Sequence record: SRR2962707_3453
DNA length: 43,227 bases
Direction: 5' to 3' (one strand)
A program made the translations under genes and the position numbers. Positions 3,579 through 16,665 of this stretch are shown here, piece by piece. The notes under the pieces are model-generated. The model was given only the letters and a program-made list of their open reading frames with translations. It was not told the origin of the DNA and did no database searches. How positions within the stretch are numbered: position 1 is the stretch's first letter; each line of letters starts with the position of its first letter.

Positions 3579-6500
3579 TCAGATCATGATCACATCGTCT
3601 GTAATTTCCGACAATGTAGTGTTGCGAAAATGGACGGTCACTCCGCTGTCTGTGAATACAACTTCTGATCCGTTTTGAACCATGTTGGCGCGTGCTTCTG
3701 CATCGGACTGATAGCCGAAACCCGTGAATTGAAGGGTGTCCCAAAGTTCCAGATCAAGGACAGTATGGGTGCCGCCAATCGTGGCATTAAACTCAAAACT
3801 GTCTGAAAAAACGCCACCTGCCAAAGTGTTACTCCCAGCCGCGCCAATAAGCCGATCATGTACGCCAAATCCGCGCATCCATGTGTTGAGATCGTCGACG
3901 GTGTCCCTTGTGAATTCAGAACTCTCTGAGAACCCAAGAACAACTTCGGACCGGCTATCGCCCTGACCAAGCCGTGCCAGCCAATTTGAAAGGCCACCCG
4001 GGTCTGAGCCACGCCCCAGAACATTTTGATAGAGCAGTTCGATAAACGCGGAATCCGAGAGCGTGTCATAGGTTGCTCGGAATTCTGTCGAGTTAACAAA
4101 ACCGGAAACGACGGTCTCCAATGCATCACCCTGCGCCAACCGATCTATCCAGTTTTTGAAGCCACCTTGATCCGGGTCACGGTTCAAGGTGGAACGATAG
4201 ACGCGGTAGACTTCATCACTCCAATGAGCGGGGTTCGTATCTTCGGTAAAGGTTTGCGCATCTGAGGCCGTGGCACGGCGGAATTCCAGGCTTTGTGCAA
4301 AGCCGAGAACGACGTCCTCGCGGCTATCGCCTAGAGCCAATCGGTTAAGCCAGTTTTGCAGCCCCCCGGGATCAGACGGGCGATCAAGGACGTTTTCATA
4401 CAACAATTCGACAAAGCCTTCGTTGGATAAGGCGCCATAGGTCTGTTGAAATTCACGACTGCGCACAAACCCAGAAGCCGCTTGGGAAAGATCGATCTCT
4501 TGATCAAACAAGCGTTCCGTCCAATTGGCGTGGCCATTTGTGTCAGGGTCGCGGTCAAGGGTCGACCGATACAGACGGAAAACGGCATTGGCTTCGTTTG
4601 GGGCGTAGCTGGCCTGAAAATTGTCTCCAATCAGGACGTCGTCGTTGGCGTTCCCATAGGCGGTGTCTGCGCCTTCGCCCAGAACAATGTGGTTCTGTCC
4701 AGAGGATCCGAAAACAGAATCCGTTCCATCGCTGCCTTGGATGTCGAGATCGTACACGAACCTGTTGCCGTAGATGTTTATCGAATTTGTCGCAGACCAG
4801 TTCTGCAAGGCGAGATCTGACATGTCCAATTGCATTGGACCCGGTGTCGCCTGGTCAAATAAGTCTATGGTAATGCGTCGTGCTAAAGTGTCGTCCGCCG
4901 GGCCAATCAGCGTCAGACCACCCGGTTGATCCAACAAATGCCCGAACTCTTTTGCGTTAAGCTTTAGGGTTTGGAACGCATCGGCCGATCGGCTGAAATC
5001 GATACGTTCGATGTCGCGGATCAACGCTTTGGAAAGATCGAAATAGTTCTCGTCGCCCAAGACAAGAGTATCGAGGCCTGCGCCGCCAAGCAGCTGACTG
5101 TCATCAAAGGGCCGTCGTGTGTGAACGCCGCTGAAATTGCCGTCGCCCAAAAGGCGAAGTTCATCATTGCCATCACCGCCCAGTAATCGGTCTGCACCAC
5201 CAAGCGCGATCAGCGTGTCATTCCCTGCTTCACCGATCAACGTGTCATTAAAGCGGCTCCCCGTCAGCTGATCCGCCCCGGCGCCCGCTTTTATGAAAAC
5301 CGGGTCTGTACCGGGCGATCTGTAGTTTTCGTTGGCGCCAGTCAGGGTTTGAGATTGCATCAGAGCATTGACTGCAAAATCTTCGAAAACGGCTTGGCCC
5401 GTGTCCGACAGACCAGATAGCCGGAACCGACCGTCCCCAAGATCAGTAATTTCCGGCCAAAAGTCCGGAAAGGTCGCCGTGGGAAAATGTACGATTTCCG
5501 ACGTAGAATTTCTGAGATCATAGTCTTGAACAACACGGTTGTAATCCGGGTCGTAAACTTCAAGGGACAAGCCGTTATTTAGCGTAAATCGAACGCTGTA
5601 TCCATTTGATAAGTAGTGTAAATTTTCTTCTGCATTGTAAAGGGCTGTGGCTCCGCCAGTTTCCTTGGATATCCTATAATCCAACGTGCCGGGGGTTGCT
5701 GTTCTACCCCCCGGTATCGACACCACGAAATAGCCAAGGTCGGTATCGAATATCTTGATCGGCCCTGTTGGGCGAAAATATTGCCCACCAGAAAAAGGAT
5801 CATAAAGCTGACCGGATCTAAAGGTTTCTGTGGCCTCAGAATATAAGGTAAATCCAAGTTGTTTGGTGTCGCCCAGGCTATTTGTGCTGAAATGTTCGTA
5901 AATATACAGGGTTTTGCCAGCGCCATCTGAGGCGGCCGCTAAATCCCCGTTTACAGTTTCGACATTCGCCGTACGGGTTTCGGTTTCTGCGGCTGTATCT
6001 AATAAGGTAAAAGGCGTAATCGGATAATGTTTGAACAGTGCCGTTAATCCTGACGTGTCTTGATTATTGGTCGAAGCCCCCAAAATATGAGTACTGACAA
6101 GCTGAAAAGAGCCTCCGGCACGGGCGGATACTTCATAGTCTTGAAGGCCTGACATCCCAGAGGAAATCGTGAAGTTTTCCTCAAACAGGACAATAAAAGA
6201 CGTGTCTTGAACGTTAAATGTCGCCACGCGTTCTCGGCCGTTCACGACCGGTGTCGAGGAGAGCACATAGCCATCTTGGGTAAACGCGACGCCGTCGGCC
6301 GCAACAGGAGTCAGCCGCAGATCTTCGTATGGGGTTCGCGCCGTAAAGGTGTTCTCTTGGGTTTTTAACCCATCTGCGGAATAGCGTTCGATAAAGAACG
6401 TTTTGTTCCACAACGCACCAAATGGGTTGGCTTGCCCCGAAAAGACAAGGGCGAACTCTCCGTTTGGCAGGTTCACCCTTTCCGGTAGACCAAAAACCAA

Positions 6501-8177
6501 TGTGTCGTCGCGGCTGGACCCAATTTGGCTAAGACCTTCTTGCTCTAACTCAATGGCATGTGAAAACTCTGACGTCGCACCTTCTGGGTCCGTGGCCTGT
6601 ATGGTGACATCCAAGAAAGTTGGGGCAGTTTGTCCTTCGTAGACACCAGACAACAATCCGGTCACGCCATCAAACGACAACCAATCGGGCAAGGACGCGT
6701 CTTCGTTCGTTCCGGGGCGTAGCAACCGATAGGTGAGCTCTCCGCCTTCGGGATCGAAAAAACGACCGTCGACCAAATTGGCTTCGACATATCCGGCAGC
6801 GTCCAGTTGTAGCGCTGGCAATGTCGATTGAAGGATCTCGGGAGCCAGGTTCAGATCAACAATCTTTGTGCGAATGCTGGCATCTGAGTTATCGCTGCCG
6901 CTGCGGCTGTAATCTGACCAGACAACGGCAAAGCGACTGTCGTCGAGCTGAATGATCTCCGGTTCGTTCTGAGTTTCCGCAATCACTTCATTGATTTGGA
7001 AAACGTTACTGCGGTTCACCGTTATTCTGTCATCGAACGGATTAAACTCATCAACGATGTCTTCTTCGAGGAAGGTGAGGTCAAACAGCTGCGCCTTGAT
7101 CGATGTACTGGGATCTCGTGCGCCAAGGGCGACGGCCCCGGCGATCCCACTTTCATCTGTCCATGTCACAACGAACCCACTGGGGCCAAAGGCTGCGATA
7201 TTCGGATCAATCTGAACACCGGCATCGGCGGCAATGACAATTTCAGAACCGACCTTCGCCCCTTGCGCCGAGAAAACTTGGGCGCGGATGTCGAATTTCT
7301 GAGACGCGTCGCTGGTACTTTGCCAGTCGTTCCAAGCAACCACAGAGGCACCGTTTTCCAGTACCGTGACCTTGGGGTTGGTCTGTAGATTGTTAGTGGT
7401 TTGGTTGACGGAGACGGTCTCGCCGTTCTTGGTTCCATCCGCGTTAAAGCGTTGGAGGGTGATTCCCGTGCCAGAACGGTCTTGTCCGGCCAGATCCAAA
7501 CCATCCCACACAACGACAAAACTTCCGTCGTCAAAAGACGCGGCATGAGATTGGACACCAAGCCCATAGGACAGATTATTTAGTGGGATCGACCCTACGG
7601 TCGATACGCCATCATTGTCATATATTCTCCCGGTTAAGGAGCCGTCGATGGTTCCGAATGGATCATAGCCGTTGAGGCTGAGGTACGAGATGAAGTAGCC
7701 ACCGTTCTCGAGCGCCGTAAGGCTCGGGGCACCCTGAAGACCTTGCGTATTCAGGTTCACGCGGAATTCCGGCGCCTCTGGAACACCGTTGGCTGAGAAT
7801 TTTCGGGCGTAAACCTCTGATTCAAGAGGGAAAGGAATGTCTACACCGTTGATGGTTTCTGTCGTTGTCCCAGATGTTGTGTTCCAGGTGACAACAAAAC
7901 CTCCGTCCGAAAGCCCAGCGACTACAGGCGTCGACGCTGCCCCTGAGGCTGGGGTAGTCACATCGAATTGCGAACCGATTTTTTGCCCATTGGCGCTAAA
8001 AATCTGACCACGAATAGTCAGGTCAGGTAACGAGACAGCGTCTGTCCAGACAACGACGTAGTTTCCGTTTTCTAAACGCGAAAGACTGGGGGAGACCTGC
8101 GCACCAAGTACAGATGAATTGGCCACCAAATCTGGGGTCCTCGCCGACAGCAAGGCATTGTGAATACTTGATGGCAC
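3579..8177 (-). CDS. Large secreted RTX/DUF4214 surface protein (adhesin or S-layer-associated, probable type I secretion substrate)
   Basis: 1532 aa, GTG start, no Sec signal. About six N-terminal repeats (GxFVVxW...Q.F.A.G.K.G), one cadherin/He_PIG-like module (FFDPEG..LTY...LPDWLSFD...L.G...ATDPEG), GGxGxD Ca-binding nonapeptides, tandem DUF4214-type units (LYxNVLxRxxDxGGLxNW...SRxxVVLGFxxSxEF). Confidence 0.85.
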   Translation of the reverse strand: MPSSIHNALLSARTPDLVANSSVLGAQVSPSLSRLENGNYVVVWTDAVSLPDLTIRGQIFSANGQKIGSQFDVTTPASGAASTPVVAGLSDGGFVVTWNTTSGTTTETINGVDIPFPLESEVYARKFSANGVPEAPEFRVNLNTQGLQGAPSLTALENGGYFISYLSLNGYDPFGTIDGSLTGRIYDNDGVSTVGSIPLNNLSYGLGVQSHAASFDDGSFVVVWDGLDLAGQDRSGTGITLQRFNADGTKNGETVSVNQTTNNLQTNPKVTVLENGASVVAWNDWQSTSDASQKFDIRAQVFSAQGAKVGSEIVIAADAGVQIDPNIAAFGPSGFVVTWTDESGIAGAVALGARDPSTSIKAQLFDLTFLEEDIVDEFNPFDDRITVNRSNVFQINEVIAETQNEPEIIQLDDSRFAVVWSDYSRSGSDNSDASIRTKIVDLNLAPEILQSTLPALQLDAAGYVEANLVDGRFFDPEGGELTYRLLRPGTNEDASLPDWLSFDGVTGLLSGVYEGQTAPTFLDVTIQATDPEGATSEFSHAIELEQEGLSQIGSSRDDTLVFGLPERVNLPNGEFALVFSGQANPFGALWNKTFFIERYSADGLKTQENTFTARTPYEDLRLTPVAADGVAFTQDGYVLSSTPVVNGRERVATFNVQDTSFIVLFEENFTISSGMSGLQDYEVSARAGGSFQLVSTHILGASTNNQDTSGLTALFKHYPITPFTLLDTAAETETRTANVETVNGDLAAASDGAGKTLYIYEHFSTNSLGDTKQLGFTLYSEATETFRSGQLYDPFSGGQYFRPTGPIKIFDTDLGYFVVSIPGGRTATPGTLDYRISKETGGATALYNAEENLHYLSNGYSVRFTLNNGLSLEVYDPDYNRVVQDYDLRNSTSEIVHFPTATFPDFWPEITDLGDGRFRLSGLSDTGQAVFEDFAVNALMQSQTLTGANENYRSPGTDPVFIKAGAGADQLTGSRFNDTLIGEAGNDTLIALGGADRLLGGDGNDELRLLGDGNFSGVHTRRPFDDSQLLGGAGLDTLVLGDENYFDLSKALIRDIERIDFSRSADAFQTLKLNAKEFGHLLDQPGGLTLIGPADDTLARRITIDLFDQATPGPMQLDMSDLALQNWSATNSINIYGNRFVYDLDIQGSDGTDSVFGSSGQNHIVLGEGADTAYGNANDDVLIGDNFQASYAPNEANAVFRLYRSTLDRDPDTNGHANWTERLFDQEIDLSQAASGFVRSREFQQTYGALSNEGFVELLYENVLDRPSDPGGLQNWLNRLALGDSREDVVLGFAQSLEFRRATASDAQTFTEDTNPAHWSDEVYRVYRSTLNRDPDQGGFKNWIDRLAQGDALETVVSGFVNSTEFRATYDTLSDSAFIELLYQNVLGRGSDPGGLSNWLARLGQGDSRSEVVLGFSESSEFTRDTVDDLNTWMRGFGVHDRLIGAAGSNTLAGGVFSDSFEFNATIGGTHTVLDLELWDTLQFTGFGYQSDAEARANMVQNGSEVVFTDSGVTVHFRNTTLSEITDDVIMI

Positions 8178-8556: not shown

Positions 8557-9753
8557 ATGCCCCTCCATTTAAAGAGAGCCAAAGAATTGCAAATTTCCAA
8601 CGCGCCGTTTTCGTTTTTTAGCCCTGAAGCCATTCACTATGGCCGAGGCCAAAGCCAACAAACGGCCACTTTGGCCAAAACTTTTGGCACCAATGCTCTG
8701 GTGGTGCATGGATCCAGCATTTCTCGGGCTGAATGGCTGATCTCTTCCTGTTCTGACCTTGGATTGTCAGTAACGACAATTGGCTGCGGGCATGAACCCA
8801 GCTTGCCTGATATTGAGGCCGCATTAACGCAGCTCAACGATGTGACGCCTGATGTCGTCATCGCACTTGGTGGCGGTTCGGTGATGGATTTTGCCAAGGC
8901 GTTGTCTGCGTTGATCCGATGTAAATCGTCGCCCTCGGACTATCTTGAAGTTGTCGGTGTTGGTCGTCCGTTGGATCATGCGCCCATTCCCATGATCGCT
9001 TTGCCCACGACCGCCGGAACGGGAGCTGAAGTGACCAAAAATGCCGTTATCTCGGTGCCGGATCGCGGGCTTAAGGTGAGCCTGCGCGATCCACGGATGA
9101 TCCCCAGATTTGCGATTGTTGATCCTGCCTTGATGCAGGGGGCCCCAAAGAGGGTTGTTCTCTCCGCGTCTCTGGATGCTGTGACGCAAGTGATCGAGCC
9201 GTTTCTGTGCACGAAGGCCAACGCGATGACGGATGCCCTGTGCCAGACGGCGATCCCGGCAGGCCTGCGCCATTTGCGCGAGGTGGTTGAGCATGACAGC
9301 GCGCCGGCCTGGGATGTTATGTCATGGGTCAGCACCTATGGCGGACTGGCTTTGGCCAATGCGGGCTTAGGCGCAGTCCACGGTTTGGCCGGGGTCATTG
9401 GCGGAAAGACCAATGCACCGCATGGTGAAATTTGTGGGGCCTTATTGCCGACGGTTTTGGCGTCACATGAAGCCAAGGCAAAAGAGGCCGGTGAAAGTGT
9501 CGTGGCTGAGCGTTTGAAATCTGTGCTGTCGATGATTGATGAGAGCTTCGGCGCAGGGCAGCCCGGTGCAGGCATTTCCGGATTAAAGCAGTGGTCCAAA
9601 GAACAGGGGCTGCGCGGACTTGGGGAAATGGGGCTATCGTCTGAGGTCTTTTCTGAAGTTGCCATTGCGGCTTTGAACGCCTCTTCAATGAAGGCAAACC
9701 CGTTTCCGGTGTCCGAACCTGACTTGATTCAGATAATGCACGCCGCGCAATAG
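8557..9753 (+). CDS. Iron-containing alcohol dehydrogenase
   Basis: ALGGGSVMD, PTTAGTGAEVT, VDP and GAVHGLAG...HGE motifs. True start may be the TTG at 8587. Confidence 0.92.
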   Translation: MPLHLKRAKELQISNAPFSFFSPEAIHYGRGQSQQTATLAKTFGTNALVVHGSSISRAEWLISSCSDLGLSVTTIGCGHEPSLPDIEAALTQLNDVTPDVVIALGGGSVMDFAKALSALIRCKSSPSDYLEVVGVGRPLDHAPIPMIALPTTAGTGAEVTKNAVISVPDRGLKVSLRDPRMIPRFAIVDPALMQGAPKRVVLSASLDAVTQVIEPFLCTKANAMTDALCQTAIPAGLRHLREVVEHDSAPAWDVMSWVSTYGGLALANAGLGAVHGLAGVIGGKTNAPHGEICGALLPTVLASHEAKAKEAGESVVAERLKSVLSMIDESFGAGQPGAGISGLKQWSKEQGLRGLGEMGLSSEVFSEVAIAALNASSMKANPFPVSEPDLIQIMHAAQ

Positions 9754-10403
9754 AGCTTTGGTTTTCCAAAGCGCGTGTCTGTTGGTATGCGGGAATAGCT
9801 GGATTTACGCTTTTGCCTTAGGGCTACAAAGTTCTGAGATGGGCCGTTGTGTCCTCTAAGGCACGTGCTAGGCTAAAATTTGTGAGTTTTGGTTTGCCCA
9901 GTGATATCAAATTCTTGACTCGACCCGGGTGAAATTTCGTTGTCTTCAGAGGGGGGAGGCCGAATGCTCTTTCCTCATCGTGTCGCATTTGCAAACCAGT
10001 TGTCGGGGGGCTGATTTTCTTTGGGCGGCGCGGAGTGGGGCAAAGCGATTTCGCTAAATCAAGACCTTGAAACAAGGCTCCGATGTATTGTCAATTCTGT
10101 CATCCGTTTGGCCGTGCATCGGGGTTTGTTTCCAATTTCGCGCCATTTAGGGAAAAATTGATGAACTGTTTCAAGTTTGGGAAATGGTGTTCAGCGATGA
10201 AATCACCTATGACGGGTGAAATTGACTAATAGAATTTAGACTTTCCCCTTTTGGTTGTGTAATTCATGCCATTTCTAGTTTTTATAGAATTATCATTAAC
10301 TTAACTTAACGGTAGGTAGAGCCTTTCGCGCACTCTCAGAGAATTGTCATAAAGCCGGTCGGCAATGGGACCTTTGGGGACAAAATAGGGAAAGGTACAA
10401 ACG

Positions 10404-10661
10404 ATGACAAAACTAACAAAGAATGCCGTTCTTTCGGGATCGATTTTAGGTCTTGCACTGACGATGGGCGTCACAGCCGTCGACGCAAAGCCAGGGAACT
10501 CTCAAGCTTCTGAGCATATGTCTCAGACGGCAAAAGACAAACTTCAGAGCCTACACTTCCCTGGAAACACAAAGGCCGTTGTTGCGTCGAAAGACGACGA
10601 CACCAAGGATGATCCTGCGAAGCCGCCTAAAGATGAGTGCCCCGTAGACACCAAGTGCTAA
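10404..10661 (+). CDS. Small secreted protein / putative modified-peptide precursor (85 aa)
   Basis: RBS GGGAAAGG upstream; basic N-region, hydrophobic core and VDA|K cleavage site (Sec signal, aa 1-28); mature part has KPGNSQA and FPGNTKA repeats, an acidic Lys/Asp/Pro tail and terminal C-x5-C. Confidence 0.75.
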   Translation: MTKLTKNAVLSGSILGLALTMGVTAVDAKPGNSQASEHMSQTAKDKLQSLHFPGNTKAVVASKDDDTKDDPAKPPKDECPVDTKC

Positions 10662-10708
10662 TCTAGGTCTTGGTTGTAATTTTGCATTCGTGGGGGCTTT
10701 TGTAGCTT

Positions 10709-12094
10709 TTGATGAATCCGAAAATCTGGCAAGTGCCAACCGAACTGGACGCCAAGATGTTTGGCCAGATTGGGGACATGTTGAGCCGCGCTGAATATGG
10801 CGCGGTTCCTGACAAAACGCCCAGCGAACAAGCTGAGGTTGGCTCAGCTCGTAACCTTTTCCAAACTTTGTTCAATGACAGTAAGGCAGTTGTTTTACCC
10901 GACGCTGTTGCCCATTTTGGGCCGGTGGGCGTTGACCTATTGCAAAAAAGTGCTCTTGTAGAAAATAGGAACGGGCAGTTGTTCCCTCTGGCCCGAATTG
11001 CAGGGTGGAACGACATGTTTGTTATCGGTGATCTACGGGACGCTGATCTGGCAAGTGAAGATGCGGTGTTCGCAGTCAGTGGCACCACCAACATTCTTGA
11101 AAAACTGTGCTTGGAACGGTCGGTCGGCCGCGCCTTGGATCTTGGTTGTGGCTCTGGCGCTCTTTCCTTGCGATTGGCGTCTCAGGCTGAGCAAGTCATC
11201 GCAACAGATATCAATTTACGGGCCATCGCGATTTCTCGTGCAAATGCTGCGTTGAATCGGCGCGACAACGTATCTGTCAAAAGGGGGTCTTTGTATGATC
11301 CGTTAGGCGGCGGCAATGTCGATTTGATCTTGGGCAACTTGCCATTTGTGATGTCGCCAGATCAACGTTTTCTATACCGCGATGGCGATCGACCTTCGAG
11401 CCAGCTCTTAACCGAAGCGATCACCGGCGCAGGGCAACACCTTTCGCCCGGCGGCGTGGCGCAGTTTACCTGTAACTGGCCGGTTCAAAACGCGGACCCT
11501 CTGGCGTGGCTGCGAAATCTGGCCGGGCAGACGGGCATTGATATGCTGGTCATTGAGTACCGTCGTCGGACACCGCTGGACCATACCCGCAATTGGAACC
11601 ACCCCGAAAAAGCGCATGGCCCTGACGAGCAACAAGACATTGAAAGACGTTGGGGCGATTGGTTTGCTGCCCAGAACATCGATCATATTGCCTTTGGTGT
11701 GGTGGTTTTGCGAAAACCAGAATCAGAGCGGCTCGGGCGGTTTTGTCATTTTACGGCGGACCGAATGACGGAAAGTGGCGGCGGCAAACAGGTTAATCGT
11801 ATGCTGCAAGCGATGGAGACACCGTTGACCTCGGGATGTATCCTCGCCCACGCACCCCATTCAATTTACCAAAAGCTGGTTAATGATGGGCAAGGGTATC
11901 AGATGATGTCGGCAGAGTGCGCCCTGAAAGAAAGTGCCGGACTTGATTTAACTGTGCCGCCGGAGGCCTTGCCAGTGATGTTCGCTTTGGATGGCAACAC
12001 ACCGTTGAGTGATATCGCTGGGCCAGAAGACCTGGGTTTCGAGGTTCTGCAAAACGGGTATCAGCGCGGTTTTTTCAATCTCAAGGGAACTTAA
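10709..12094 (+). CDS. Class I SAM-dependent methyltransferase, HemK/PrmC-MTS-like, with C-terminal PqqD/RRE-like winged helix
   Basis: Motif I ALDLGCGSG, ATDIN, GSLYDP, motif IV GNLPF (NPPF/Y variant), YRDG, L.PGG.AQ; C-terminus LTVPPEALPVMFALDGNTPLSDI...LQNGYQRGFF. Start TTG 10709 or ATG 10712. Confidence 0.85.
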   Translation: MMNPKIWQVPTELDAKMFGQIGDMLSRAEYGAVPDKTPSEQAEVGSARNLFQTLFNDSKAVVLPDAVAHFGPVGVDLLQKSALVENRNGQLFPLARIAGWNDMFVIGDLRDADLASEDAVFAVSGTTNILEKLCLERSVGRALDLGCGSGALSLRLASQAEQVIATDINLRAIAISRANAALNRRDNVSVKRGSLYDPLGGGNVDLILGNLPFVMSPDQRFLYRDGDRPSSQLLTEAITGAGQHLSPGGVAQFTCNWPVQNADPLAWLRNLAGQTGIDMLVIEYRRRTPLDHTRNWNHPEKAHGPDEQQDIERRWGDWFAAQNIDHIAFGVVVLRKPESERLGRFCHFTADRMTESGGGKQVNRMLQAMETPLTSGCILAHAPHSIYQKLVNDGQGYQMMSAECALKESAGLDLTVPPEALPVMFALDGNTPLSDIAGPEDLGFEVLQNGYQRGFFNLKGT

Positions 12095-12174
12095 GGCACG
12101 TCGAAGTGTCGATACCGTAAGGGATCTACCTGGCGACGGCCCTATCCTTGCTGAGCCACGCCGGAGGCGAGCGT

Positions 12175-14133
12175 CTATTCCGCTTCCAACTGTAGCGCAT
12201 ACATGGGGCCACCGCGCCATCGCGGGAAGCTGTAGCCATTGACCATCACCACATCGATATCGGCGGCGTTTTGGGCGATGCCTTCGTCTAATATCTGTGT
12301 GCCTTCCGCCTGCATCGCAGACAGTAAGCGTTCCATTATCGTCTTGGCGTCGATCGGATGTCGCGTGATGCCAGACTCCTTTGAAGACGCCAAAATGATC
12401 GCTTCGACCTCTGGGCAGGGCGTGCCAAACTTGTCGTGGTAGCGATACCATCCTTTGCCCGTTTTTCGACCAAAGCGACCCGCCTCACAAAGCGTGTCGG
12501 CAATGCCGACATAGCGCTGAGCCGGATCACGTGACGCCGCCTGACGTTTGCGCATGGCCCAGGCGATATCCAAACCAGCAAGATCCTGCATTTGGTAGAT
12601 GCCCATCGGAAAGCCAAAGTCTCGCATCGCAGCATCAACGTCCCAGGGCAACGCGCCGTCTTCTATCATATAGTCCGCTTCACGTCGATAGGCCGACATG
12701 ATCCGGTTGCCAATAAAGCCATCGCACACACCCGCCAGAACGGTGATCTTGCGTAGCTTGCGGCCAAGCGCCAATCCGGTTGCGATCACATCCGGGGCGG
12801 CGTCGTCGGGCACCACCAATTCCAGCAGTTTCATGATATGCGCTGGCGAAAAGAAGTGCAGTCCGATGACCCGACTTGGGGTCTGTGTCGATTGCGCGAT
12901 CTGCGTTACATTCAGGTAGGAGGTATTGGTGGCAAGCACCGCGTCCGGGCGGGTCACGCGATCCAGTTCTGCAAATACCTGTTTTTTGACGTCCATATCC
13001 TCAAAAACCGCTTCGATGACAAGGTCGGCGTGGGACAAGGCGGTATAATCTGTGCTTCCCGAAAAGGCTTGGACTAGGTCGTTATGTCGGGTTTCGGAAA
13101 TAAGGCCGCGCTTAAGGCTGCCGTTCAAAATGTCCAGCACTCGAGAGGTGCCAAGCGCAATTGCGGCCTCGTCACGTTCGATCATTGTGACGGTCAAGCC
13201 GGACAACAAGCAGGCGGCTGCGATCCCAGCGCCCATTGTGCCGCCGCCAATCACACCAATCTGCGTACAGGCGCGGGACGGCACCTCTCTTAGCGCCGGT
13301 AATCGCCCGGCAGCGCGCTCTGCGAAAAAGATGTGGCGCAACGCTTTTGATTGAGGGTCGTCTTTTAGCGCAAGAAATGTGGCGCGCTCCGTCACCAGAG
13401 CCGTCTCCGCATCGCTACTGAGAGAGGTCTCGATTGCTTCACAAGCCGCAACGGGGGAATACTGGCCACGGGCCTTTTTCTGAACTGTCGCGATCTTCAG
13501 ATCAAACGCGGCTATATCGGTTGGTTGCTGGGGCGCACGTTGTGTCAAAGCAGTCGGCAAAGGCTGCTCAATGATGTCATTGGCAAATGCGGTGGCTGCC
13601 GTGCGCAAGTCTTGGTTTGCTACACGATCGATTAGCCCGGTTTTCAGGGCCTGCGCCGCAGAAACAGGTTTGCCGCTCGTCACCATGTCAAGCGCCGCTT
13701 CCGCAGAAATCAGCCGGGGCAGACGTACTGTCCCGCCAGCACCGGGGATCAGACCAAGAGCCACTTCCGGCAAACCGAGTTTTGCAGCGTCGTCGGCAAT
13801 GCGGTAGTGACAGCCCAAGGCGATCTCAAGACCGCCGCCCAAGGCTGAACCATGAATGGCGGCAATCCAGGGTTTCGTGGCGGTTTCAATGGCGGCAATA
13901 ACGTCTGGCAAATGCGGGGTGACGGGAGGTTTGCCAAATTCCCGGACATCGGCCCCGGCAATAAATGTCCGGCCGGCACATATAAGAACAACGGCCTTAA
14001 CCTGAGGGTCCGCCTCCGTCTCAGCAAGGGCGGCCATCAAACCAGCGCGCACTGTCTGTCCGATCGCGTTGACGGGAGGATTGTCTATTGTCGCGAAAGC
14101 AATGGATTTCTCGATAAGCACCGAAACGGACAT
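12175..14133 (-). CDS. Bifunctional enoyl-CoA hydratase / 3-hydroxyacyl-CoA dehydrogenase (FadB/FadJ/PimF-like)
   Basis: Crotonase motifs FIAGAD, ALGGGLE, GLPEV; Rossmann IGGGTMGAGIA, EAVFED, ATNTS, GLHFFSPA. Confidence 0.93.
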   Translation of the reverse strand: MSVSVLIEKSIAFATIDNPPVNAIGQTVRAGLMAALAETEADPQVKAVVLICAGRTFIAGADVREFGKPPVTPHLPDVIAAIETATKPWIAAIHGSALGGGLEIALGCHYRIADDAAKLGLPEVALGLIPGAGGTVRLPRLISAEAALDMVTSGKPVSAAQALKTGLIDRVANQDLRTAATAFANDIIEQPLPTALTQRAPQQPTDIAAFDLKIATVQKKARGQYSPVAACEAIETSLSSDAETALVTERATFLALKDDPQSKALRHIFFAERAAGRLPALREVPSRACTQIGVIGGGTMGAGIAAACLLSGLTVTMIERDEAAIALGTSRVLDILNGSLKRGLISETRHNDLVQAFSGSTDYTALSHADLVIEAVFEDMDVKKQVFAELDRVTRPDAVLATNTSYLNVTQIAQSTQTPSRVIGLHFFSPAHIMKLLELVVPDDAAPDVIATGLALGRKLRKITVLAGVCDGFIGNRIMSAYRREADYMIEDGALPWDVDAAMRDFGFPMGIYQMQDLAGLDIAWAMRKRQAASRDPAQRYVGIADTLCEAGRFGRKTGKGWYRYHDKFGTPCPEVEAIILASSKESGITRHPIDAKTIMERLLSAMQAEGTQILDEGIAQNAADIDVVMVNGYSFPRWRGGPMYALQLEAE

Positions 14134-14315: not shown

Positions 14316-14367
14316 AAACTTGAGCCGGGATAGGATCAATTTAGAATCAACGACGGAGATGACGAAA

Positions 14368-16665
14368 ATGCGGATTGCTTGCCTCGGTGGTGGACCTGCG
14401 GGTCTTTATTTTGCGATCTCCATGAAGTTGCGGGATCCCGACTGTGAAGTCGTTGTTTTCGAACGAAACAAAGCGGATGACACCTTTGGGTGGGGCGTGG
14501 TCCTTTCGGATGAAACTCTGGACAATCTCTATAAGAATGACCCCAAAAGCGCCGACGCGATCCGAGAGCATTTCGCCTATTGGGATGACATCGCCTTGCA
14601 TTTCAAGGGGGAGCGCATGGTGTCATCAGGCCATGGGTTCTGCGGGATTGGCCGTAAGATGCTGTTGCTTTTGCTGCAGGATCGGGCGCGTGAGCTGGGT
14701 GTGGATCTGCGCTACGAAACTGTGGTGGAAAGTGCCGAGGCCTACCGCTCAGAGTACGACATTGTCGTCGGCAGCGATGGTTTGAATTCGCATACGCGTA
14801 CCCTTTACCAAGACACGTTCAAGCCGAATATCGACAACAGATTGTGCCAGTTTGTTTGGCTTGGAACGCATCAAACCTTTAAAGACGCCTTTACCTTTAT
14901 TTTCGAAGAAACCAAGCATGGTTGGGTCTGGGTGCACGCTTACCAATTCGATGAAAACACCGCGACATTCATTGTGGAATGTACGCAAGAGACGTTCGAC
15001 GCCTGGGGCTTTGGCGACATGTCTCAGCAAGAAAGCATCGCGGTCTGCGAAGAGATCTTCAAGGATCACCTTGGTGGCCATGCGTTGATGACAAATGCGA
15101 ACCATATTCGAGGATCCGCCTGGATACGGTTTCCACGGGTTCTGTGCGAAAAATGGAGTCATGAAAACGTTGTGTTGCTGGGCGACGCGGCCGCAACTGC
15201 GCATTTCTCAATCGGGTCTGGCAGTAAGCTGGCGCTTGAAAGTGCTGTGGCCTTGGCTGATCTGGTCTGTGAAAAACCGACCTTGGAAGAAGCTTTTGCC
15301 GAATATGAAGATGCGCGGCGCCTGGAAGTCCTGCGGCTTCAATCTGCGGCGCGGAACTCTTTGGAGTGGTTTGAACAGGTCGAACGCTACATTGATCTGG
15401 ACCCGGTTCAGTTGAACTATTCCATGCTGACACGCAGCCAGCGTATCAGCCACGAAAACCTGCGGGAACGGGATTCTGAATGGCTTGGATCGGCAGAGCG
15501 GTGGTTCATGGATCAGGCGGGCCTGCCCGCAGAAGCCCCATTACGCGCCCCGATGTTTACCCCCTTCAAGCTCCGTGACTTGGCTTTGAAAAACCGGATC
15601 GTGGTGTCGCCGATGGCGCAGTATAAGGCCAAGGATGGAACGCCGGGCGACTGGCATTTGATCCACTACAGCGAACGTGCCAAGGGCGGTGCGGGTCTGG
15701 TCTTTACAGAAATGACCTGTGTAAGTGCGGAAGGGCGGATCACACCGGGATGCCCGGGGCTTTATGCGCCAGAGCACGAAGCGGGCTGGGCAAAGCTGAC
15801 CAATTTTGTTCATGCTGAGACCGATGCCAAAATCTGCTGTCAGATTGGCCATTCCGGTCGGAAAGGCTCGACCAACATCGGTTGGGAAGGCATGGATGCG
15901 CCGCTGGCTTCGGGGAACTGGGACATCGTGTCGGCGTCTGCGATCCCCTGGACCAAGGACAACGCGACACCGCGTGAAATCACGTTGCCCGAAATGGCCC
16001 AGATCAAGGCTGAATTTGTCGCGTCTGCTCAGATGGCCGACCGCGCTGGCTTTGACATGATCGAGCTGCACGCCGCCCACGGATATTTACTGTCTTCGTT
16101 CATTTCGCCTACCTCTAACGTTCGCGCTGACGCTTACGGCGGTAGTTTGGAAAACCGGATGCGCTGGCCGCTTGAGGTTTTCACCGCCATGCGCGCTGTC
16201 TGGCCTGCGGATAAGCCGATGTCGGTGCGCATCTCTGCCAATGATTGGGTCGGTGATGCGGGGGTGACACCCGATGAAGCGGTACAGATCGCGGCTATGT
16301 TTGCCGAGGCGGGGGCGGATTTGATTGACGTGTCTGCCGGTCAGACAACTTCTGATGCCAAACCCGTTTATGGCCGGATGTTCCAAACGCCTTTCTCTGA
16401 TCTTATCCGCAACGACGCGAAACTGCCGACCATGGCTGTGGGTAATATCTACGAAGCGGATCATGCCAACTCTATTCTGATGGCGGGGCGCGCCGATCTG
16501 GTTGCGGTAGGTCGCCCACATTTGGCCGATCCGTATTGGACATTGCACGAGGCCGCGAAGATTGGGGACCGCGCTGCAACAGATTGGGCCAAACCCTATG
16601 AAGCCGGGCGTGATCAGCTATGGCGGCTTGCGGATCGCGAAGCAGAGATGGCGGGCAAGGTATGA
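14368..16665 (+). CDS. abmA: Bifunctional 2-aminobenzoyl-CoA monooxygenase/reductase (salicylyl-CoA 5-hydroxylase/oxidoreductase family)
   Basis: N-terminal FAD monooxygenase ([37 protein letters not shown]) fused to an Old Yellow Enzyme domain ([34 protein letters not shown]). Start placed at ATG 14368 behind GGAG. Confidence 0.9.

Follow-up and report, generated by a model that had tools for sequence, protein, structure and literature searches.

Among characterized enzymes, the nearest solved relative of the methyltransferase reported here, by both sequence and structure, is GenN, the gentamicin 3''-N-methyltransferase (PDB 5TYQ, 5U4T, and others). GenN is 320 to 341 amino acids (aa) long, and it methylates an aminoglycoside as part of a large biosynthetic cluster. 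A second relative, AerE (PDB 7RC2 to 7RC6), is the D-Asn side-chain N-methyltransferase of aeronamide. In the part of PMC9060474 drawn on here, AerE is described as leader independent, with N231 and F234 essential, and as needing D-Asn from a radical S-adenosylmethionine (SAM) epimerase. On the peptide side, the bufferins and oxazolins offer a parallel. According to the consulted sections of PMC11626156 and PMC12710340, their precursors bear a signal for the general secretory (Sec) pathway, are modified in the cytoplasm, and are exported and cut by general machinery. Those systems also include a domain of the kind called a recognition element (RRE) of ribosomally synthesized peptides that undergo posttranslational modification (RiPPs). 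Here, we analyze SRR2962707_3453, a stretch of 43,227 nucleotides whose full length we call the window, in which a gene for a short peptide with a Sec-type signal is followed on the + strand by a gene for a class I methyltransferase with a C-terminal RRE-like domain. We give about an even chance to the reading that these genes are a RiPP-like pair, suggested by sequence, in which the enzyme methylates the peptide before export. The pair consists of the following features.

10389 to 10396, + strand: purine-rich, Shine-Dalgarno-like stretch (GGGAAAGG), 7 nt before the peptide ATG, read from the sequence
10404 to 10661, + strand: peptide open reading frame (ORF), 85 aa, Sec-type signal recognized by eye
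10404 to 10487, + strand: predicted Sec signal peptide, residues 1 to 28 (MTKLTKNAVLSGSILGLALTMGVTAVDA), where the peptide family is most conserved
10488 to 10661, + strand: predicted hydrophilic exported part, 57 aa plus stop, with a conserved S-x-[ST]-A-x-[DE]-x-L-x-x-L-G-x-P-G, a variable charged tail containing Lys and Pro, and two C-terminal Cys
10662 to 10708, + strand: spacer between the two genes, 47 bp, in which neither a terminator nor a known RNA element was detected
10709 to 12094, + strand: methyltransferase ORF, 461 aa, class I, NLPF at motif IV
10709 to 11083, + strand: N-terminal domain of the methyltransferase, residues 1 to 125, corresponding to the N-terminal domain of GenN and to the DUF7059 of relatives
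11084 to 11719, + strand: class I SAM-dependent methyltransferase core; motif I, 11138 to 11158 (D144-G150); motif IV (NLPF), 11336 to 11347
11720 to 12094, + strand: predicted C-terminal PqqD/RRE-like winged-helix domain, residues 338 to 461 plus stop codon

An earlier first-pass annotation of this DNA had described the same two ORFs, separated by 47 bp with no clear terminator. Both ORFs are where it placed them, and a simple site scan likewise found no terminator-like site on the + strand between the two genes. The spacer did not fold better than shuffled sequence (z -1.38), and a search of Rfam over positions 9700 to 12300 returned 0 families at E <= 1. Promoter- and terminator-like sites were about as frequent around the pair as expected by chance, and the + strand had none in front of either gene. 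The methyltransferase ORF begins with a TTG codon; its second codon, an ATG at 10712, reads as the likelier start.

Comparison of sequences indicates that the two genes have been kept together as a unit and are not neighbors by chance, because their order is kept in a divergent metagenome contig and because the corresponding accessions in a second bacterium are consecutive. Specifically, the 2445-base metagenome contig (L085) has a peptide gene at 510 to 800 and an enzyme gene at 889 to 2280, in the order and on the strand seen in the window, with a gap of 88 bp. Its enzyme is full length and 36% identical to that of the window. In Pseudoruegeria sp. M32A2M, the peptide (NDR58772.1) and the enzyme (NDR58773.1) are both on a contig of 733566 bases; since consecutive accessions normally mean consecutive genes, it is implied that the two are neighbors. 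Both protein clusters also carry the name Aliiruegeria sabulilitoris. Furthermore, peptide P0029 and enzyme P0039 each list a longest ENA contig of 6521 bases and probably share it, a conclusion drawn from the equal contig sizes only.

The pairing can be set against the phylogeny of the enzyme. The enzyme alignment (61 rows) took 48 of 61 locus ORFs, 13 being removed by eye because the start was over-long or the contig short, and the tree was built from 22 of its 61 rows. In this tree, the window enzyme, three close relatives, L085, and Pelagimonas fall into one long-branched clade of six enzymes with 100/100 support, within which the branching order of L085 versus Pelagimonas is not settled. 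Close relatives are few: A. sabulilitoris at 55% identity, two metagenome clusters at 51%, and Pelagimonas varians. Pairing with the peptide appears from these sequences to be conserved inside this clade and not outside it. The first-pass expectation that homologs of the enzyme would have a conserved adjacent peptide held for L085, by implication for M32A2M, and probably for the ENA contig, but it failed for Pelagimonas and for the Actinomycetota. Put in terms of RiPP systems, a small candidate precursor gene beside the enzyme is conserved across relatives, except in Pelagimonas.

Both genes of this cassette, which occurs in marine bacteria, were very rare in the collections that we searched. 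Members of the enzyme clade occurred in the center genome only, corresponding to 1 of 401 genomes of the family, 1 of 401 of the class, and 1 of 401 of the phylum (0 of the 400 others in each case). The peptide profile matched 0 of 401 family genomes, in a search made without a positive control. A plasmid collection gave one distant enzyme match only, from Nonomuraea (31.6%). In a scan of metagenomes for the enzyme, L085 was the one true clade member, and nine weaker matches covered only approximately 100 to 160 residues of the core.

On L085, the C-terminal end of a DDE transposase (DDE_Tnp_1_4, PF13701, E = 3.8e-10) is encoded at 3 to 164 on the + strand, approximately 350 bp upstream of the peptide gene. 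Because this transposase end adjoins the two genes, L085 suggests that the pair moves as a unit, and we propose that it is a self-contained, horizontally moving cassette. In the window, the edges of the pair have no flanking repeats beyond a weak 18-nt direct pair and a 14-nt inverted pair. It could be argued that one small mobile segment has merely been inherited by several lineages, with no functional link between the genes and with the peptide as an ordinary small periplasmic protein. The small number of independent contexts (three to four) is in keeping with such shared descent, as is the fair closeness of four of the six clade enzymes (51 to 55% identity to that of the window). Yet in L085 the enzyme has diverged to 36% identity and the peptide to approximately 32%, while order, orientation, and a short spacer have been kept, and both genes are otherwise extremely rare. 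We therefore consider the absence of any functional link quite improbable.

The peptide ORF also appears, from sequence comparison, to belong to a real gene family. A word-indexed protein search yielded as one relative a 100-aa hypothetical protein of A. sabulilitoris that is 63% identical to the window peptide, and the 96-aa peptide of L085 (BLASTP E = 7e-07, approximately 32% identical) provided a third member. Run against 1.84 billion representatives, a profile of these three peptides (A3) produced eight matches at E <= 0.001. Seven were signal-bearing peptides of 68 to 118 aa with a common front end, and one was repeat junk. Searches with the window peptide alone gave no meaningful match in Pfam or NCBIfam, and in the ESM Atlas only unnamed clusters with scores of 0.80 or less.

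The alignment of nine family peptides follows a common pattern, which runs from LSGSILGLAL..G through A-x-A to S-Q-A..H-x-S-x-T-A-K-D-x-L-x-S-L-G-x-P-G-A-T. Invariant columns are G12, S13, I14, A18, and G22 in the signal segment, together with A43 and L47. Read by eye, the signal segment has an n-region with Lys, then a hydrophobic core, and then A-x-A, the arrangement that is the rule for Sec signals cut by signal peptidase I. When the nine peptides were inspected by eye for n-, h-, and c-regions with small residues at -3 and -1, and for a lipobox Cys or a twin Arg, A-x-A was seen to precede the hydrophilic part in six; P0028 and P0030 end in V, and P0034 ends in A-L-A. The charged tail varies from peptide to peptide, always with some Lys and often with Pro. 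A front that is the most conserved part and a tail that is the most variable part make up the usual leader/core pattern of RiPP precursors, and the signal segment (residues 1 to 28) may double as a leader.

The first-pass annotation had singled out two PGN motifs in the window peptide, KPGNSQA and FPGNTKA, and had favored their Asn as the methylated residue. Both motifs are present in the hydrophilic part, which closes with C-x5-C. However, the proposed target is not conserved. The N32 column is Asn in three of the nine peptides, the N55 column is Asn in two and Ala in five, and the PGN tripeptide occurs in three. This pattern suggests that the two PGN motifs mark the lineage of the window and are not a feature of the whole peptide family.

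Several lines of evidence place the enzyme. It matches the Pfam MTS family (PF05175) at E = 2.6e-15 and 56.9 bits, well over the gathering cutoff of 23, and has motifs I and IV in place, as expected of a class I MTS/HemK-like methyltransferase. Motif I reads LDLGCGSG (D144-G150), with G146, G148, and G150 invariant in 61 relatives. In motif IV (N210-L211-P212-F213), P212 is invariant and N210 nearly so across the same relatives, and the first Pro of the motif is replaced by Leu in the clade of the window enzyme. A hydrophobic segment was not seen at the N terminus, so the enzyme should be cytoplasmic. When a 12-member family profile was compared with the PDB, it found GenN over the N-terminal domain and the core (E = 3.1e-38, in an alignment that begins at profile position 39), AerE at 7.6e-20 (7RC2 to 7RC6), and HemK/PrmC lower. 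An AlphaFold model built with 61 aligned sequences (predicted local distance difference test score [pLDDT] of 94.3) was compared by Foldseek with solved structures, giving the following matches.

GenN: E = 5.9e-24, template modeling (TM) score on target of 0.78
AerE: E = 4.3e-19, TM score on target of 0.66
PrmC: E = 3.3e-11

By profile and by predicted fold, then, the enzyme appears to belong to the N-methyltransferase lineage of GenN, AerE, and PrmC/HemK, which bears out the kinship with amide N-methyltransferases that had been noted before. Within this lineage, it differs from each described member. GenN lacks a C-terminal domain and has N-S-P where the window enzyme has N-x-P-F. PrmC/HemK, the release-factor Gln N5-methyltransferase, shares an MTS-type core and a motif of the N-P-P-[YF] type for an amide nitrogen; however, its N-terminal domain is different, it has no C-terminal domain, and the window enzyme scores far below the family cutoff. 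All NCBIfam matches to HemK, PrmB, and RsmC were subthreshold, and we rejected assignment to the PrmC/HemK release-factor equivalogs (TIGR03534, 55.9 bits versus 199.1; TIGR00536, 49.4 versus 115.5). The proteusin Asn N-methyltransferases AerE and PoyE have the same fold and lineage as the window enzyme and act on a ribosomal peptide, which is the kind of substrate that we propose here. The essential N231 and F234 of AerE, with V235, have an N-x-x-F-V spacing equal to that of N210 and F213 in the window enzyme, as far as AerE is documented in the source used. In contrast to AerE, described in the same source as leader independent and lacking an RRE domain, the window enzyme has a fused PqqD-like domain, and the presumed precursor has a Sec signal and no conserved Asn. 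A proteusin system of the PoyE/AerE type was considered and rejected: no epimerase was found in a scan of the immediate flanks, and the peptide has a Sec-type signal, not a long leader resembling nitrile hydratase.

Distant relatives of the enzyme are Actinomycetota proteins of approximately 500 aa that are 23 to 28% identical to it over the whole length and carry the Pfam architecture DUF7059, MTS, and DUF7782 (PF23186, PF05175, and PF25004). The homology is full length (E = 1.5e-44 to 2.0e-22), the alignment covers all three parts, and the three-part architecture is the same. These relatives bear precomputed PF23186 and/or PF25004 annotations, except for the weakest match, P0017, which has neither. 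The two DUF models miss the window protein: its N-terminal 134 aa and C-terminal 124 aa each hit 0 Pfam families at E <= 10. The clade of the window enzyme is separate from these relatives and long branched, and the actinobacterial loci, unlike the window, have no adjacent peptide.

The C-terminal region (residues 338 to 461) extends beyond GenN and AerE. The first-pass annotation had likened it to PqqD and RRE domains, and this resemblance proved real at the level of the family. A profile of 49 C termini (A5), searched against 177635 PDB sequences, had as its best match the PqqD of Methylobacterium (5sxy, E = 3.3e-4), with further PqqD entries at 0.0032 (5vrd) and 0.0076 (3g2b). Pfam PqqD was also found in relative P0006 at E = 3.3e-4, just under the cutoff, whereas the C terminus of the window enzyme alone matched nothing in Pfam, PqqD included, at E <= 10. 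The domain was modeled alone on 49 aligned C termini (locus sequences only, with two short ones dropped), and in the model (pLDDT = 91.1) a first helix is followed by four strands, then by three helices, and last by one more strand. With strands at 47 to 55, 60 to 69, and 76 to 79, helices at 81 to 88, 96 to 99, and 105 to 115, and an extra strand at each end, the predicted fold has the order beta-beta-beta then alpha-alpha-alpha. The portion of PMC12710340 consulted gives this order as the strict definition of an RRE.

Comparisons of fold were less specific. In Foldseek, the top match of the C-terminal model was a subdomain of a carbamoyltransferase (E = 6.9e-4), and TglHI scored E = 0.14. 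In a structure comparison with RREs, MibB (5.7), TbiB1 (5.6), MccB (5.3), and ThcOx (5.2) were followed by the lower-ranking NisB, LynD, TbtB, CteB, McbB, SuiB, and TglI, in a list where non-RiPP winged helices scored as high or higher. Because the family profile finds PqqD by sequence, independently of any comparison of folds, we conclude from sequence and model together that the C terminus of the family is probably a PqqD-type recognition domain.

In the mechanism that we propose, the enzyme would be a cytoplasmic N-methyltransferase of the GenN/AerE type, with an intact N-x-P-F acceptor motif and a PqqD-type domain fused to its C terminus. This recognition domain would capture the newly made peptide through the conserved N-terminal segment that is also the Sec signal, and the enzyme would then use SAM to place at least one methyl group on nitrogens of the hydrophilic part. 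With the Asn of PGN not conserved, the candidate acceptors would be the Gln of the S-Q-A/S-Q-T stretch or the Lys of the tail. Motifs of the N-x-P-F type point to an amide or a similar planar nitrogen, and this motif, by analogy with HemK and AerE, would favor the Gln of S-Q-A or S-Q-T; GenN methylates aliphatic amines, which would allow the Lys of Lys/Pro-containing tails. Sec would then export the peptide, and signal peptidase I would cut after A-x-A, so that a dedicated protease or transporter would not be needed. The cassette contains no gene for a protease or transporter, which agrees with this route. The data show the gene pair, its recurrence, the lineage of the enzyme, and the fold of the C-terminal domain; that the peptide is bound, which nitrogen accepts the methyl group, how the events are ordered, and what the exported product does are inferred.

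Double use of a Sec signal as a leader has a parallel in the bufferins, whose Sec-signal precursors work with an RRE-type partner in the account given in the consulted part of PMC11626156. In bufferin-type precursors, a recognition motif distinct from the signal was not seen, to the extent that the consulted part of PMC12710340 reports. The chemistry of the bufferins and oxazolins is different, in that an iron oxidase (MNIO) with DUF2063 converts Cys to thiooxazole in Cys-rich DUF2282 precursors. Neither an MNIO gene nor a DUF2063 gene was seen in the flanks of the pair. Prediction of a complex of enzyme, SAM, and peptide gave a score of 0.00 in both runs; these runs were made without alignments and with an uncertain peptide fold, and the result weighs neither way.

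A number of observations weigh against methylation of this peptide by this enzyme. GenN, the solved enzyme most closely related, takes a small molecule as its substrate. An invariant Asn, Gln, Lys, or His column was found nowhere in the nine-peptide alignment. Pelagimonas varians has an intact enzyme of the clade and no member of the peptide family (best E = 0.149 by protein and 1.84 by profile). Among 97 loci, the peptide profile matched only L085 besides the window, and its search of the family genomes had no positive control. Moreover, the pairing is judged from four of nine peptides. Three others are on contigs of 601 to 1391 bases, which are too short for a judgment, while P0032 and P0034 are on contigs of 72850 and 7312 bases, respectively. 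No clade enzymes were listed on contigs of those last two sizes, in a search that scores only word-sharing candidates and is uninformative on this point. Finally, Actinomycetota have the same enzyme architecture without the peptide, and therefore the recognition domain by itself does not imply this peptide.

Many of these points would be accommodated if the genes were linked and the enzyme acted on another substrate, such as another protein, a nucleic acid, or a small amine, in the manner of its relatives PrmC, RsmC, and GenN, with the peptide as an accessory or unrelated periplasmic protein that travels along. The aminoglycoside substrate of GenN, the subthreshold matches to HemK, PrmB, and RsmC, the peptide-free enzymes of Pelagimonas and of the whole actinobacterial branch, and the lack of a conserved acceptor residue in the peptides all speak for a substrate elsewhere. 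What such a substrate leaves unexplained is that two genes, each found in fewer than one of 400 sampled genomes, recur as neighbors and in the same order across 36% enzyme identity, that the enzyme bears a PqqD-type peptide-recognition domain, and that the peptide has the conserved front and variable tail of a precursor. On balance, we regard another substrate as less likely than not.

The DUF7059-MTS-DUF7782 architecture is common in Actinomycetota, where the gene lies in a different setting. At two of the six Actinomycetota loci scanned with Pfam (L002 and L008), the enzyme gene directly follows a gene for an H+-pyrophosphatase and precedes one for topoisomerase I. The ORF cluster holding the H+-pyrophosphatase was upstream of the enzyme in 44 of 80 genome loci. 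Here, an enzyme with a PqqD-like domain and no visible peptide partner sits in surroundings of a housekeeping type. We looked at small conserved ORFs beside the actinobacterial enzymes as candidate partners and rejected them, since every cluster looked like an out-of-frame reading of neighboring genes. A lipoprotein-like ORF after the enzyme in L008 was rejected as well, as it is not conserved at other loci.

Pelagimonas also holds a second, broken copy of the enzyme gene (L084, genome G001 contig C31, approximately 1597 to 2848). This copy is interrupted by one in-frame TAG and one TAA, which leave a 288-aa ORF and, apart from it, a C-terminal ORF. Upstream of this copy are ORFs that look transposase-like by eye; two that were scanned gave no Pfam family.

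A giant repeat protein occurs near the enzyme gene in both Pelagimonas and the window. In the window, a gene 2.2 kb from the cassette (3579 to 8177, - strand) codes for a secreted-type protein of 1532 aa, which has RTX, DUF4214, and Ig-like domains as well as GGFVVTW-type repeats at its N terminus. In Pelagimonas (L001, 6 to 3767, + strand), a protein with the repeats of this giant protein (BLASTP E = 8e-18) is encoded on the strand of the homologous methyltransferase gene, and its end lies 155 bp ahead of that gene. The giant protein might belong to a shared island or be another client of the enzyme. Taken further, the enzyme might methylate exported or surface proteins generally, and this calcium-binding repeat protein in particular, with the peptide as one client or none. 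Rickettsial lysine methyltransferases, which methylate the surface protein OmpB, offer an analogy. However, the giant gene of the window lies on the other strand and is separated from the cassette by an alcohol dehydrogenase gene, the L085 cassette adjoins a transposase end and not a giant gene, only two contexts were inspected, and giant repeat proteins are common in this bacterial group. The chance that the enzyme serves exported proteins in general seems to us very slim.

Returning to a RiPP-like pair in which the peptide is the substrate, we tentatively extend it to a new class, at something short of an even chance. In this class, a methyltransferase of the GenN/AerE type with a PqqD-type domain would read a Sec signal as a leader, methylate the peptide in the cytoplasm, and pass it on to the general machinery for export. 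By extension, the DUF7059-MTS-DUF7782 proteins would be recognition-guided N-methyltransferases whose substrates are encoded elsewhere. The first-pass annotation recognized no described pathway with this layout, and literature searches found none either. Specifically, no system combining an RRE, a methyltransferase, and a signal peptide was found, no literature naming DUF7059 or DUF7782 was found, and a term search of a 2024 review on RiPP methyltransferases returned neither "RRE" nor "signal peptide." Modification of a peptide under guidance by an RRE, followed by Sec export, is a known kind of system, of which this pair would be a variation. If true, this would be a minimal two-gene RiPP-like system with a methyltransferase only, in which recognition is built into the enzyme and Sec and signal peptidase are borrowed. 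It would add a second enzyme chemistry, after that of the bufferins, to the few Sec-exported modified peptides, and it would provide a first functional handle on DUF7059-MTS-DUF7782, a large uncharacterized family common in Actinomycetota.

We also compared the locus with sequencing runs, none of which shared half of the words of the query. Contigs from marine metagenomes contained relatives that are approximately 95 to 99% identical, and one DNA contig bridges both genes (10416 to 11711), although contigs are no evidence of cotranscription. The peptide gene differed less than the enzyme gene: pieces of the peptide gene had 1 difference in 177 letters and 1 in 217, and pieces of the enzyme gene had 15 in 423 and 14 in 290. 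In an algae-associated metatranscriptome run, whose library possibly included DNA, a 223-nt contig covers 10395 to 10617 with two differences. This contig is a weak hint that the peptide gene is transcribed. No piece from the same run fell on the enzyme gene, which hints, weakly at most, that transcripts of the precursor are more abundant.

The pair is flanked in the window by genes identified in a Pfam scan.

8557 to 9753, flank of the pair: Fe-alcohol dehydrogenase gene
12175 to 14133, convergent with the pair: enoyl-CoA hydratase/3-hydroxyacyl-CoA dehydrogenase gene

The 650 bp of noncoding sequence before the peptide gene (9754 to 10403) has a G+C content of 0.44 to 0.48, compared with 0.53 to 0.59 in its neighbors. 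Within it, near 10300, is a triple repeat of TTAAC; a simple scan found no + strand promoter-like site there. Farther downstream, beside the fatty-acid-oxidation-type gene, a 781-aa fusion of FAD-monooxygenase-type and Old-Yellow-Enzyme-type domains is encoded at 14320 to 16665 on the + strand. This flavin oxidoreductase fusion appears to be part of an aryl-CoA pathway and unrelated to the cassette.

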